From a virus (Duplodnaviria > Heunggongvirae > Uroviricota > Caudoviricetes), in the IMG/VR virus record IMGVR_UViG_2698536355_000010: 39,062 bases of DNA, one strand, 5' to 3'. Below are positions 17,409 to 37,927 of the stretch, in pieces. The notes under the pieces are model-generated. The model worked only from the letters and a program-made list of their open reading frames with translations. It did no database searches and was not told the DNA's origin. Within the stretch, counting starts at the first letter, position 1. Every line of letters starts with the position of its first letter. The translations under genes and the position numbers were made by a program.

Positions 17409-17861
17409 TTAGTTATCTTTTGTCATCCACCTCAAGAGAGTGTTTAGAATTATCTGGTTACTCTCTTGGGTTTGTCCCAGCAATCTGCGAGCTGGGTATT
17501 TAATACTTTTGCTTCTTTTACCTATCCGCTCTCTCAATCCGTAGTGGTGAACACGGGCAATGCGCTGTACCTTGCCTTCAAACTGCACGCTGGCAGAGTC
17601 GGCGCTGGCGGAAGTTTTCAGGTATTTTGTGGTGCGCAGCTTTGCAAACATCTGACGTTTGATACGGCCTTTTTTACTGCGTGCTGTTACCCGTCGCGGT
17701 TCATAACTGCTGCCATCTGGATTGCGCTGCATTCTGATATTTTGCTGCTGTGTCCGGCGTAGTTCCTGCGCCAGCTGGCGCATCATGCGGCTTCTTGCGG
17801 CTGGCTCCAGATTCGCCAGCAAGGCACTCAGCCAGTCGTCCACTTTCTGCAGTTCAGCCAC
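17409..17861 (-). CDS. S: tail completion protein S
   Basis: 150-aa ORF in P2 gpS position; its stop lies 3 bp from the convergent SIR2-like stop. Confidence 0.8.
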   Translation of the reverse strand: MAELQKVDDWLSALLANLEPAARSRMMRQLAQELRRTQQQNIRMQRNPDGSSYEPRRVTARSKKGRIKRQMFAKLRTTKYLKTSASADSASVQFEGKVQRIARVHHYGLRERIGKRSKSIKYPARRLLGQTQESNQIILNTLLRWMTKDN

Positions 17862-22391: not shown

Positions 22392-23204
22392 TCAGCAATT
22401 GGTCAGAGTGTCAGCGGGGGCGTTACCGCCTGTTGCACGCTGGCGGTAGTCCTGGCGGCTGTCTTCATGACTCAGCTTATTCACCAGTTCGTTAAAGGCG
22501 GTCTGCTGTGCCTGCAGGGCAGTCTCCAGCTCAGACAGGGATTTTTCGGTACGCACACTCAGGTTTTGCTGCTCAGTGGCGACCAGCTCCACGGCCTTAT
22601 GCACATCAGAGAACCGGGCGTCATCGGACTGCTCTTTTTTGGTAAACAGCGCCGTGACACGGGCAAACAGGGACGGTTTGTCCTCCTGGATTTCTTCCAG
22701 TTCGATCACCGTTTCCTCTGCAGCGGTAAAAAGATTGGCGGGATTCTGCTTGCGGTTTGCCAGCGGGTTATGGGCTGCACTGGCGCTGAATGTCAGCATT
22801 TCAGTGCCCAGACTGGCAGGGTCATCAGTGGCAGCCAGGCCGACCAGGTAGGCTTTGCCCGTATCAGCAAAGTTCGGGCTGACTTCCATAGAGGTGAATA
22901 ATTTCTGGCCTTTTTTCACCAGTTCCACCAGGGACTCCGTTGGCTCAACGTCGGCATACAGCGCCATCTTGCCTGCCAGCGGACCTTCCGTGATTTCTTC
23001 AGCAAACAGCGCCGTCACCTTGCCGTAGCGGTTAAAGGTGCTGTCCGGCAGATAAGACTTGATGTGCTCAAGGTTAATCAGCGCGGTATACACCGCCGGG
23101 TTGTAGCTGGCTGCCATCTGTTCCAGCCATTCACGCTGGATTTCGCGTCCGTCGGTGGTGGCACCTTCCACCCCGATGCGAAAACGCTTTGCTTTCACTG
23201 TCAT
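22392..23204 (-). CDS. O: capsid scaffolding protein O
   Basis: 270-aa ORF in P2 gpO position. Confidence 0.85.
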   Translation of the reverse strand: MTVKAKRFRIGVEGATTDGREIQREWLEQMAASYNPAVYTALINLEHIKSYLPDSTFNRYGKVTALFAEEITEGPLAGKMALYADVEPTESLVELVKKGQKLFTSMEVSPNFADTGKAYLVGLAATDDPASLGTEMLTFSASAAHNPLANRKQNPANLFTAAEETVIELEEIQEDKPSLFARVTALFTKKEQSDDARFSDVHKAVELVATEQQNLSVRTEKSLSELETALQAQQTAFNELVNKLSHEDSRQDYRQRATGGNAPADTLTNC

Positions 23205-26147: not shown

Positions 26148-26151
26148 TCTT

Positions 26152-26175
26152 AAAAACCTGCATATGCAGGTTTTT
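26152..26175. terminator. bidirectional hairpin terminator between Q and the cargo operon
   Basis: aaaaa-cctgcatatgcagg-ttttt, palindrome flanked by an A-run and a T-run. Confidence 0.6.
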
Positions 26176-26210
26176 ACATTATATAGTTATAAAACTAACA
26201 AAAATCATAT

Positions 26211-34774: not shown

Positions 34775-35284
34775 TCACAGCAAACCGAATGAAGCACCAA
34801 GGCCAGTCATGGTATCAACTGCACTCGCCATCGCAGGATTAGCCTGTAAACGGGCTTGCAATGAAACAGCAGCCAGCGCCATCAGTCGTGTTACAGAGTT
34901 AATGCTGCTGATAGCATCACGACGACCGGCACTAGTTTTTACATCACCAGATACCGCACCTGCTGCAACACGCCCGATCTCTGCAGTTGCGCTCATGACG
35001 TAATGCGGCAGTTTCTCTTTTGCTACCTCATTAATCGGTACACATGGCAGACAATGAATCTGTGCCAGAAAACCATCTACCAACGTTGAATCTTCAGTCA
35101 GATCGGTAAGCAGCCAGATTTCTGGTGCGGTTAATAAATGAGGTTGAGCTGGGTTCAGCTTGTTCCGCAGAATCTGCACATTCATGCCCGCACGTTCTGC
35201 CAGTTGCACCAGATTGTGGCGCAGTGCGAATGCACGACAGGCTTCATCAAAATGTGGATGTTTGGAAACTTGGTAATCAAACAT
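34775..35284 (-). CDS. cII: CII-like lysogeny-establishment transcriptional activator (phage 186 type)
   Basis: 169 aa from ATG 35284 ([19 protein letters not shown]...); matches remembered 186 CII in length and sequence blocks. Confidence 0.8.
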
Positions 35285-35316
35285 GGTCGACACCTCTGAT
35301 GTATCCCAAAATGGAA

Positions 35317-35538
35317 CTAGTTGAATACAACATTGCAATCAGTAAGTGCATCAACGGTAAGAGCAGCAAGGTTGATCATTACCTTTTCTCTTTTCTTGTC
35401 TTTACGAAGACGATGCCGAGGAATGCGACCATCCGCCAACATATCGTTGATTGTGTCGATTGAAAGACCAGTAAGTTCGCTATAACGCTCGATTGTGACG
35501 TGTGGCGTATTCAGAGTTATTGAAATGTTAGGGGTCAT
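35317..35538 (-). CDS. apl: Apl/Cox-like excisionase and lytic-switch repressor
   Basis: 73 aa from ATG 35538, HTH-like ([22 protein letters not shown]), immediately upstream of cII and divergent from cI. Confidence 0.65.
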
Positions 35539-35588
35539 GATGCAACATCTCCTATTGGCTTGTGGTGAGCCTGTAGTAATCGTGACAA

Positions 35589-35604
35589 GTACCCAATTGG
35601 GTAC
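35589..35604. promoter_or_regulatory. perfect 16-bp palindrome in the cI/apl switch region (candidate operator)
   Basis: gtacccaattgggtac in the 95-bp region between the divergent apl and cI starts. Confidence 0.45.
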
Positions 35605-35633
35605 AAAACTGATACTAGGATCGCAAAAGAGAT

Positions 35634-36230
35634 ATGTCAACATCAAAGTACCCAAGTGAGATCAAAATAAATCCCAATAAAGGTGGTAAGGCTGCGATTG
35701 AGCGATTAGTCGAAGCCTATGGCTTTACGACACGACAGGCTTTAGCTGATCACTTGGAAGTATCAAAAAGCACACTAGCGAACAGGTATTTGCGGGATAC
35801 ATTTCCTGCTGACTGGATAATCCAATGTGCTCTTGAAACAGGAACCTCCCTCAAATGGTTAACTACCGGACAAGGCCTTAAGCAAAGCTCGCTGACAGCA
35901 GCTACAGAAGAGCTTGTTAAGTTTCGCCTTGCCGCAGGCAAAATGATTGAAGACGGTTCATATGTCTTCGATTCATCATTTCTTCCTGCAAACCTTTCAT
36001 CACCAATTGTTGTTCAGGATGGACTCGTCACATACATTTGTGATCAAAAATTTTCTGAAGTACTTGATGGAAACTGGTTAATCAATATCGACGGAACCTA
36101 TTCCATTCGAAAAATCACAAGGCTTCCTAAAGGAAGGATTAAAATTACAACAGCAGAGAATAGCTTTGAATGTGCATTTTCTGATATTGAAGTGGTTGCT
36201 TGTATAAGAAGTACAATAGTCTCGAATTAA
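35634..36230 (+). CDS. cI: CI immunity repressor (phage 186 type)
   Basis: 198-aa ORF with N-terminal HTH (TTRQALADHLEVSKSTLANR); divergent from apl. Confidence 0.8.
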   Translation: MSTSKYPSEIKINPNKGGKAAIERLVEAYGFTTRQALADHLEVSKSTLANRYLRDTFPADWIIQCALETGTSLKWLTTGQGLKQSSLTAATEELVKFRLAAGKMIEDGSYVFDSSFLPANLSSPIVVQDGLVTYICDQKFSEVLDGNWLINIDGTYSIRKITRLPKGRIKITTAENSFECAFSDIEVVACIRSTIVSN

Positions 36231-36250
36231 TATAGTAAAAGGATTTTAAA

Positions 36251-37927
36251 ATGAATTCATTTGCCATCGTTATACTCTTATTAGCATTTCTCGCCCCTGT
36301 TCTAGCTGTAATATTATTTAAACAAAGTAAAAAACACAAAGCGGCTATAGATAACCTGACAGCTAACAACATAGCCCTTTCTAACCAACTGATTGAAAAT
36401 CAAGAAAAACTAGCACAGACCGTACGAGAATTATCAGAGCTTGAAGGGCGAGCAGCACCATTGTGGCAATACGAAGAATTGCACAGCGCAGTAATGGATG
36501 CAGAGAATAAGATAAAAAATGCGGACTCAATAGCCAAGCAAAAAATAGATGAAGCCCAAATTAAGGCGGCTAAAACAGTAAACGAAGCAAATTATCAAGC
36601 TCAGATGACAATAAGCAACGCTAATAGCGAAGCTATAGCAATCACCAAAGACGCTCGCGATGCACGCCTGAAAGCCAAAGAACGTCTTGATAATGCTAAT
36701 AATAAAGCAAATGAGCTAATCTCAAATGCTAATGACAATGCAGTAAAAATTATTTCTGATGCAGAAGAAAGAGCAAAGGAGATTGCTGGTTCAGCATATG
36801 AAGCTAAAGAGTTTGCAGAAAAATATGAAGCAGTTGCAAAATCAATGAAAAATAAAATTGAAGGTTATGGTGATGAATGGATCATCCCTAACCGTAGTGT
36901 ACTTGATGAGCTGGCAGAAAATTATGAATTTACAGATGCAGGCAAGGAATTACAAAAAGCCAGAGAGTTAACCAAATCATTAATAAAAACTAATAAAGCT
37001 GCTTCGTGTGATTATGTTGAGCAAAACAGGCGTAATACTGCCATAAACTTTGTTTTGGATGCCTTCAATGGAAGAGTTGACAGTATTTTATCAAAAGTCA
37101 AACACAACAATTTTGGAAAACTTTCCCAAGAAATAAAAGATGCATTTCAACTAGTAAATTACAATGGCTCTGCCTTTAGGTCCGCAAAAATAAGTGACAT
37201 CTATCTTCAGGCAAGACTCAACGAGCTAAAATGGGGTGTAGCAGTTAATGAAATTATGCTCGAAGAAAAAGAAGAGCAAAGAAGGATTAAAGAACAGCTT
37301 CGTGAAGAGGAAAGAGCTCGTAGAGAATATGAAAAAGCGATAAAAGAAGCTGAAAAAGAAGAAAAAGCTATTCAGCAAGCTATAAATAAAGCAACGAAAG
37401 AACTTATGCTTGCAAATGAAGAACAACGCTTAGCTTTAGAGCAAAAAATAGCTGAACTACAGTTAAAATATGAAGAAGCTGAAGCTAAAAATCAACGAGC
37501 TATTTCTATGGCTCAACAAACCAGATCAGGCCACGTCTATATCATTAGTAATATTGGTTCATTTGGCGAAGATGTATATAAAATTGGAATGACACGCCGC
37601 CTTGAACCACTTGATCGTGTTCGTGAACTCGGAGATGCTAGTGTTCCTTTTTCGTTCGATGTTCATGCGATGATTTATAGTGATGATGCACCATCATTAG
37701 AAAACCATCTGCATAAAGTTTTCAACGAAAAGCAGGTCAATAAAATTAACTCACGAAAAGAGTTTTTTAACGTAAATTTAAAAGAAATCAAATCAGTTAT
37801 TGAAGACATGAACATCAACGCCCACTGGACAATGTTTGCAGAGGCGAAAGAATATAGAGAGTCTCTAGCTATTGAGCAGGAGCGCAAAGCAGCCACTTCC
37901 GCCAACGATGAACTACATGTTGCTTAG
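36251..37927 (+). CDS. membrane-anchored coiled-coil protein with C-terminal T5orf172/GIY-YIG-like domain
   Basis: N-terminal TM helix (FAIVILLLAFLAPVLAVILF), roughly 400 aa A/E/K/N-rich coiled coil, C-terminus VYIISNIGSFGEDVYKIGMTRR...PFSFDV...LENHLHKVF...EFF; AT-rich; AGGA before ATG. Confidence 0.75.
   Translation: MNSFAIVILLLAFLAPVLAVILFKQSKKHKAAIDNLTANNIALSNQLIENQEKLAQTVRELSELEGRAAPLWQYEELHSAVMDAENKIKNADSIAKQKIDEAQIKAAKTVNEANYQAQMTISNANSEAIAITKDARDARLKAKERLDNANNKANELISNANDNAVKIISDAEERAKEIAGSAYEAKEFAEKYEAVAKSMKNKIEGYGDEWIIPNRSVLDELAENYEFTDAGKELQKARELTKSLIKTNKAASCDYVEQNRRNTAINFVLDAFNGRVDSILSKVKHNNFGKLSQEIKDAFQLVNYNGSAFRSAKISDIYLQARLNELKWGVAVNEIMLEEKEEQRRIKEQLREEERARREYEKAIKEAEKEEKAIQQAINKATKELMLANEEQRLALEQKIAELQLKYEEAEAKNQRAISMAQQTRSGHVYIISNIGSFGEDVYKIGMTRRLEPLDRVRELGDASVPFSFDVHAMIYSDDAPSLENHLHKVFNEKQVNKINSRKEFFNVNLKEIKSVIEDMNINAHWTMFAEAKEYRESLAIEQERKAATSANDELHVA

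Follow-up and report, generated by a model that had tools for sequence, protein, structure and literature searches.

A perfect 16-bp palindrome in the genetic switch of a 186-type E. coli prophage is probably the operator through which the prophage's own CI repressor acts on the lytic promoter, as judged from its sequence context. This palindrome, GTACCCAATTGGGTAC at positions 35589-35604 (hereafter O1), is identical to its own reverse complement and lies in the 95-bp gap (35539-35633) between the ATG of an apl-like gene on the minus strand (35538-35536) and the ATG of cI on the plus strand (35634). Sequence, coordinates, and placement between divergent apl and cI starts are as the original prediction had given them. 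All positions refer to the window, i.e., the whole stretch of 39,062 nucleotides that we analyzed. On our best reading, O1 would be the strongest site in a set of two or three operators through which CI occludes the lytic promoter. In the model that we propose, a CI dimer would bind O1 as its best-matching and most symmetric site just downstream of the lytic -10 box and over the predicted start site. O1 would act together with a second site, O2, which lies 59 bp away within the initial codons of cI, on the upstream side of the -35 box, while a weak site in the promoter spacer (Om) would probably contribute. CI, probably as a higher oligomer like in phage 186, would bracket and cooperatively occlude the lytic promoter, and apl, cII, and the replication genes would be shut off in the lysogen with the immunity specificity being set by these sites. 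Both cooperativity and the formation of a CI wheel would be expected from the homology of the CI C-terminal domain to the structure 2FKD.

The window opens with E. coli grxA (1-258) and closes at the stop codon of int (39062), next to which rcdA (ybjK) is found in a genome of 100% identity, and we therefore view it as an integrated prophage. Its cI gene (35634-36230, plus strand) encodes a 198-aa immunity repressor of the 186 family with an N-terminal helix-turn-helix (HTH) and a C-terminal oligomerisation domain (Phage_CI_repr PF07022, 8e-32; Phage_CI_C PF16452, 6e-28). This protein shares 32% identity with 186 CI and matches the 186 CI crystal structure 2FJR across both domains (E=2.7e-27, residues 21-189) as well as 2FKD. 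The first gene of the lytic operon is the apl/cox-like gene (35317-35538, minus strand), coding for a 73-aa excisionase and repressor that belongs to PHROG 575 "Cox-like excisionase and repressor" (phrog_575, E=1e-31) and resembles 186 Apl in the HTH region only. The lysogeny-establishment activator gene cII (34775-35284, minus strand; PF06892, E=3e-42) encodes a protein 70% identical to 186 CII. Taken together, the Pfam and 2FJR matches of CI, the identity of CII, and the PHROG assignment bear out the 186-type switch that had been assumed from the letters alone. On the 3' side of cI follow a DUF4041/T5orf172 gene and then a P2-type integrase gene. The switch region (1,051 bp queried) is 99.9% identical to that of Escherichia phage vB_EcoM-813R9, and this type of switch was found in 168 of 5426 complete E. 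coli genomes (ca. 3%), while matches of at least 99% identity to the 97-nt operator region at 35572-35668 were detected in 97 of these 5426 genomes. P2/186-like prophages of this type are also present in Klebsiella, Citrobacter, Raoultella, and other enterobacteria.

A perfect 16-mer palindrome on its own is statistically unremarkable in 39 kb of DNA. In 200 dinucleotide-preserving shuffles of the window, we counted a mean of 0.75 perfect palindromes of at least 16 bp per window, with one or more in 55% of the shuffles, and the real window contains three of them (17767-17782, 26151-26176, and 35589-35604). Since such a palindrome is expected by chance, the case for O1 rests on its context. The sequence of O1 itself has a single match in the window even if up to 3 mismatches are permitted. 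Regarding the other two palindromes, the one at 17767-17782 is a second 16-bp sequence (TGCGCCAGCTGGCGCA), and the one at 26151-26176 (TAAAAACCTGCATATGCAGGTTTTTA) spans 26 bp between the end of a portal-like open reading frame on the plus strand (26147) and the end of another on the minus strand (26211), where it most likely forms a bidirectional intrinsic terminator. The shuffled controls would agree with O1 being a chance palindrome or the site of some other factor without any role in immunity, such as a host protein or a restriction/modification system that targets CAATTG or GTAC, and so would the lack of enrichment of the core pattern CCCANNTGGG across the window. We regard this explanation as very unlikely, though, because O1 sits at the predicted start of a promoter, has a copy nearby, and gives way to other sequence where the CI type changes, as described below.

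The only strong sigma-70 match in the region 35200-36300 is located on the minus strand (35612-35640) and agrees with 10 of 12 consensus positions (-35 box TTGACA at 35640-35635, 17-bp spacer, and -10 box TAGTAT at 35617-35612). Given that it points toward apl and cII, we view this predicted lytic promoter as the equivalent of pR. Its -35 box overlaps the cI ATG, and relatives with other types of CI have the two hexamers in the same positions. Judging from the consensus promoter, transcription would start around 35605-35604, and O1, which begins 7 bp past the -10 box and ca. 1-2 bp past this predicted start, would thus cover approximately positions +2 to +17.

A 22-nt direct copy of this segment with 18 of 22 identical positions (82%) is found 59 bp from O1 (AAGTACCCAATTGGGTACAAAA compared to AAGTACCCAAGTGAGATCAAAA at 35646-35667). 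Within this copy lies O2 (GTACCCAAGTGAGATC, 35648-35663; core CCCAAGTGAG by pattern search), a degenerate version of O1 that shares AAGTACCCAA and a TG.G core with it. O2 occupies cI codons 5-10 at around -43 to -58 of the lytic promoter, i.e., upstream of the -35 box and 59 bp from O1 when measured from center to center. When the whole 39 kb were scanned with a position weight matrix built from the O1 sites of relatives, O1 and O2 obtained the top two scores (25.7 and 10.3, respectively). Neither pattern nor matrix scans of the window revealed any further O1-type site, with the best remaining scores at or below 6.8 compared to a mean maximum of 12.2 in shuffles. Between the two sites, GATCGCAAAAGAGATA (35619-35634) may be a weak middle operator, the Om candidate introduced above. 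It fills the 17-bp spacer of the lytic promoter except for one base, agrees with O2 in 10 of its 16 positions, and is kept in relatives; its distance is 30 bp to O1 and 29 bp to O2.

The beginning of cI carries a signature of selection that does not seem to concern the protein. Among 40 distinct sequences, the synonymous entropy of cI codons 1-16 (35634-35681, plus strand) is only around 0-0.4 bits, whereas it mostly amounts to ca. 0.5-2.3 bits from codon 18 onward, and the codons overlapping O2 or the -35 box show no synonymous change at all in these 40 distinct relatives. Because synonymous sites are frozen in the first 16 codons and vary from codon 18 on, we conclude that this stretch is under constraint at the level of DNA. 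The frozen block spans the -35 box and O2 but also reaches approximately 18 bp past O2 (AAATAAATCCCAAT...). This extension may reflect an additional contact with protein, an UP element, or a signal for translation.

To follow these sites through evolution, we used 118 loci that encode CI relatives, taken from genomes and viral contigs, together with annotated loci of phages and E. coli, and extracted the operator sites of relatives by offset. The set with the same CI DNA-binding domain (CI start MSTSKYP-like) comprises 78 loci that collapse into 43 distinct segments of 200 nt, and in this set the N-terminal DNA-binding domain of CI is nearly invariant while the full protein varies down to 52% identity. 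Across 42 distinct relatives, positions 4-6, 8, and 11-13 of O1 are invariant and positions 1, 2, 7, 10, 15, and 16 nearly so, with variation being confined to the mirror pair 3/14 and the central position 9. The consensus of O1 over these 42 distinct switches, GTnCCCAAnTGGGnAC, is therefore itself mirror-symmetric, and this symmetry of conservation points to a two-fold symmetric protein contact like that of a dimeric HTH protein. Perfection of the palindrome is not what is conserved: It is seen in only 1 of the 43 distinct segments, the class of the window, whereas the other relatives have 1-3 mismatched pairs (most commonly in the variants GTCCCCAAATGGGAAC and GTACCCAAATGGGGAC). The conserved feature is rather the core CCCA-N2-TGGG with an outer GT/AC. 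Conservation as such is weak evidence here because close relatives share most of the intergenic region. In the original prediction, absence from related switches, together with a lack of binding by CI or Apl, would have counted against the operator reading, and related switches do retain the element in the form of GTnCCCAAnTGGGnAC.

The same alignments bear on the idea of a chance or unrelated site. Loss of the perfect palindrome in most relatives is what this idea would lead us to expect, but the symmetric conservation holds from 100% down to 52% CI identity. In particular, the conserved outer GT/AC would be dispensable for a restriction target, and GTAC and CAATTG are themselves lost in most relatives (giving GTCC... 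and CAAATG). Support for the preferred reading of O1 as a CI operator comes from loci L115 and L117 with CI of 52% identity. These have a TTGACA-17-TAGTAT promoter like the window and around it three clear GTTCACAnnTGGGTAC-like sites (GTTCACAtcTGGGTAC, GTCCACAtaTGGGAAG, and GTTCACAgaTGGGTAC), whose offsets are exactly those of O1, Om, and O2. This supports a layout of three operators for the lineage as a whole. Further away, loci L018-L046 from Xenorhabdus/Photorhabdus (around positions 1400-1530) encode CI of 45-48% identity and keep TTGACA-17-TAGTAT at the start of cI. They carry inverted repeats of ATCTCA/TGAGAT type, including one with 8-bp arms (CTCATCAA-N19-TTGATGAG), which suggests a family-wide half-site grammar of GTnCnCA / TGnGnAC.

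Two proteins had been named as possible ligands of the palindrome, CI and Apl, and the comparison of switches with different CI types discriminates between them. The identical 73-aa Apl is encoded in nine loci, five of which have a different CI of ca. 300-316 aa with two tandem HTH domains (the CI of L003 is annotated from an internal start). In these five loci, TCACA-type repeats take the place of exactly the O1 and O2 segments, while most of the remaining gap and both promoter hexamers are retained. As identical Apl occurs without the palindrome when CI differs, the palindrome travels with CI and not with Apl, and the O1/O2 segments are thus swapped along with the CI type while Apl and CII stay the same, just as expected of determinants of immunity specificity. 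The operator reading of the original prediction therefore seems to hold for CI, given that O1 abuts the -10 box, has a second copy, is conserved symmetrically, and resembles 186, but not for Apl, whose identical form is found without the palindrome.

An Apl/Cox-like protein could in principle use O1 to repress lytic and lysogenic promoters from between them in the way of 186 Apl. The seven Apl sites of 186 run downstream from -6 of pR in the zone between pR and pL, which matches the location of O1, and O1 also adjoins a conserved block with candidate direct-repeat boxes. These three direct repeats, spaced by around 10 bp (TTGTCACG / TTACTACA / TCACCACA; 35561-35588, minus strand), might tentatively be read as Apl/Cox boxes, and the block that contains them is largely kept whatever the CI type, with the strongest conservation between the apl start and around 35570. 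However, 186 Apl recognizes 6-bp direct repeats at a spacing of 10-11 bp, i.e., one helical turn apart, of which at least three adjacent ones are needed as for Apl-type factors more generally (PMC7498355), whereas O1 is an inverted repeat. Its second copy is located inside cI and upstream of the -35 box, outside the zone between the promoters, and no O1-like sequence is found beside int at the attachment site. With the same 73-aa Apl being present in switches where the palindrome has been replaced, O1 does not track Apl either, and we consider a role as Apl/Cox site highly improbable.

Recognition by CI cannot simply be read from the protein sequence. The recognition helix of HTH2 in the two-HTH relatives (SKSTLA[N/T]RY) is the same as that of the window CI while the promoter-proximal sites are different, so that specificity is unreadable from the helix alone. 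Along the same lines, we discarded a code linking helix to site because the helices are near-identical (SKST[LM]ANRY) across groups with different operators. In the two-HTH loci L006 (1961), L009 (2001), L093 (1515), L119 (1791), and L122 (1800), an O2-like site such as GTCCCCAATTGGGAAC or ATCCCCAAATGAGAAC is located ca. 300 bp into cI, within the linker that precedes HTH2. FL occupies this position in 186, so that the O2-like site may be a distal one that is read by HTH2.

The palindrome might also act at the level of RNA. A 6-bp hairpin would then form where the lytic transcript begins, and within the cI leader, and would affect mRNA stability or translation. Indeed, the predicted fold of the leader RNA (35606-35539) has the palindrome as a hairpin at its 5' end (-18.7 kcal/mol; z = -2.3 compared to shuffles). 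Yet 38 of the 42 distinct relatives lack stem pair 3-14 without any compensatory pattern, O2 shares the left half of O1 but cannot form the hairpin, and changes in the segment follow the CI type and not the genes downstream. An Rfam search with the O1 segment gave no match, and a terminator scan at O1 made no call and saw no terminator-like T run. A function as RNA thus appears extremely improbable to us, and we return to O1 as a CI operator.

The original prediction had proposed a comparison of O1 with the operators of 186 (GenBank NC_001317, where the three CI sites at pR span 23011-23067), and this comparison turned out favorably. The 17-bp spacer of 186 pR is filled by a near-palindrome, ATCTCTCAATTGGGAGAT or ATCTCTCAATTGGGAGA(T), inside the annotated CI-binding region. 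We take this near-palindrome to be the middle of the three pR sites, presumably the "B-type" site (Dodd & Egan 1996; Shearwin et al. 2002). Its inner 10 bp, CTCAATTGGG, agree at 9 positions with those of O1, CCCAATTGGG, and the reverse complement of CTCAATTGGG likewise matches O2 (CCCAAGTGAG) at 9 positions. The two switches further share a PF07022 + PF16452 repressor and a cI / apl-cII arrangement with inverted repeats of 16-18 bp that overlap the lytic promoter, which in the window is a predicted one, and Om resembles 186 in that the near-palindrome of the latter also fills the pR spacer.

At the same time, the window differs from 186 in several respects. The outer half-site bases are GTAC in O1 but TCTC in 186, and the recognition helices read SKSTLANRY and ASSSLSNRY, respectively. 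The best site lies at around +2 to +17 (relative to the predicted start) in the window but in the pR spacer in 186, and the -35 box together with O2 falls into the cI reading frame unlike in 186, with a gap of 95 bp compared to 129 bp. Instead of three adjacent operators with a spacing of ca. 21 bp, the window has two clear sites and a weak middle candidate, covering 59 bp (30+29) where the three sites of 186 at 21-bp intervals span 56 bp. The 21-bp spacing of the CI sites at 186 pR corresponds to two turns of DNA (PMC3675496). P2 and W-phi as P2-like phages resemble the window in having convergent early promoters and immunity operators that overlap the early promoter (PMC1904263, PMC2995052), but P2 C is an unrelated protein of ca. 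99 aa that acts on direct repeats, whereas the window encodes a 186-type repressor and has an inverted repeat.

The face-to-face promoters that had been expected in the gap are only half apparent. While the lytic promoter is a clear prediction, the lysogenic one is absent from the consensus scan of 35200-36300, which found no promoter above threshold on the plus strand. A candidate pL-like lysogenic promoter can nevertheless be composed at 35520-35548 (plus strand) from TTGAAA inside apl (35520-35525), a 17-bp spacer, and CAACAT (35543-35548), and the synonymous sites of apl codons 5-8, which cover TTGAAA, are frozen. The -35 box of 186 pL is located inside apl as well. An alternative lysogenic -10 box, CATGAT at 35536-35541, is identical to the -10 box of 186 pL. 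With either candidate, the cI transcript would read through O1 as it does in 186. We also considered that the palindrome might be the spacer of a lysogenic promoter (GTGACA-17-AAAACT), which is unlikely given that the would-be -11 A is a G in 7 of 43 distinct relatives.

In 186, the FL and FR sites are A-type distal operators (ATTCAC-N5-GTGAAT) around 300 bp to either side that loop to the CI wheel bound at pR. Our matrix scan found no distal sites of O1 type above background in cI or apl/cII and no FL-like site. However, the element GTATCCCAAAATGGAAC (35302-35318) directly after the apl stop codon occupies the relative place of 186 FR and of the pE -10 box and consists of a partial inverted repeat (core CCCAAAATGGA) with a -10-like CAAAAT. 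This element is kept in all relatives whatever their type of CI. It is possibly a distal CI site and/or the -10 box of pE (CAAAAT), and it may be simply the latter because it is equally conserved with other CI types. A 17-nt inverted repeat of 88% complementarity (CAGAATCTGCACATTCA / TGAATGTGCATTTTCTG) was noticed between 35168-35184 in cII and 36167-36183 near the end of cI, with its arms at ca. 450 and 550 bp from the promoter and both in coding sequence; it may be due to chance.

Most likely, O1 is an ordinary operator of a known type that has so far not been described for this type of immunity. The literature that we searched makes no mention of GTACCCAATTGGGTAC or of the 186 spacer-palindrome string, nor does the loopometer paper list any operator sequences. 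CI immunity classes have been described as little studied (PMC3448106). The general picture of such switches would remain unchanged, and the unusual spacing and the operator embedded in coding sequence are likely the only features that specialists may find worth their attention. As a somewhat doubtful but specific proposition, the window could belong to a widespread lineage of 186-family repressors with operators around 30 bp apart (30+29 for O1, Om, and O2, with the same offsets in L115/L117) instead of the 21 bp of 186, and with one operator and the -35 box placed in the first 16 codons of cI. In 186, ca. 180 bp are wrapped where 147 bp had been predicted, a discrepancy that has been discussed under the question "An inconsistency with the model?" (PMC3675496). 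If the CI oligomer truly contacts sites spaced by about three turns, the switch would be a natural test of this discrepancy, and wheel-type repressors would then tolerate or even prefer different operator phasing. For those who study 186, such switches would offer natural variants in the position of operators, their spacing, and their overlap with repressor coding sequence with which wrapping around the CI wheel could be probed. More practically, GTnCCCAAnTGGGnAC would be the probable immunity determinant of a prophage type present in around 3% of complete E. coli genomes and might be used for predicting superinfection immunity or, as a pair of promoter and repressor, as a genetic part.

Some observations concern the region between the switch and the attachment site. 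At the int-proximal junction (positions 1150-1253 of locus L129), we found two direct repeats of AACCTAACTTATTGTTTT that are likely arm sites of Int and two copies of ACCACCA, 11 bp apart beside int, that resemble the repeats at 35561-35588 and are possibly Apl/Cox boxes. The gene between cI and int (36251-37927) encodes a 558-aa protein with DUF4041 and T5orf172/GIY-YIG domains (PGAP "SNIPE associated domain"), and in relatives the same slot is taken by an ATP-dependent nuclease, a GmrSD-domain protein, or other hypothetical proteins, so that it looks like a hotspot of variable cargo or anti-phage defence.
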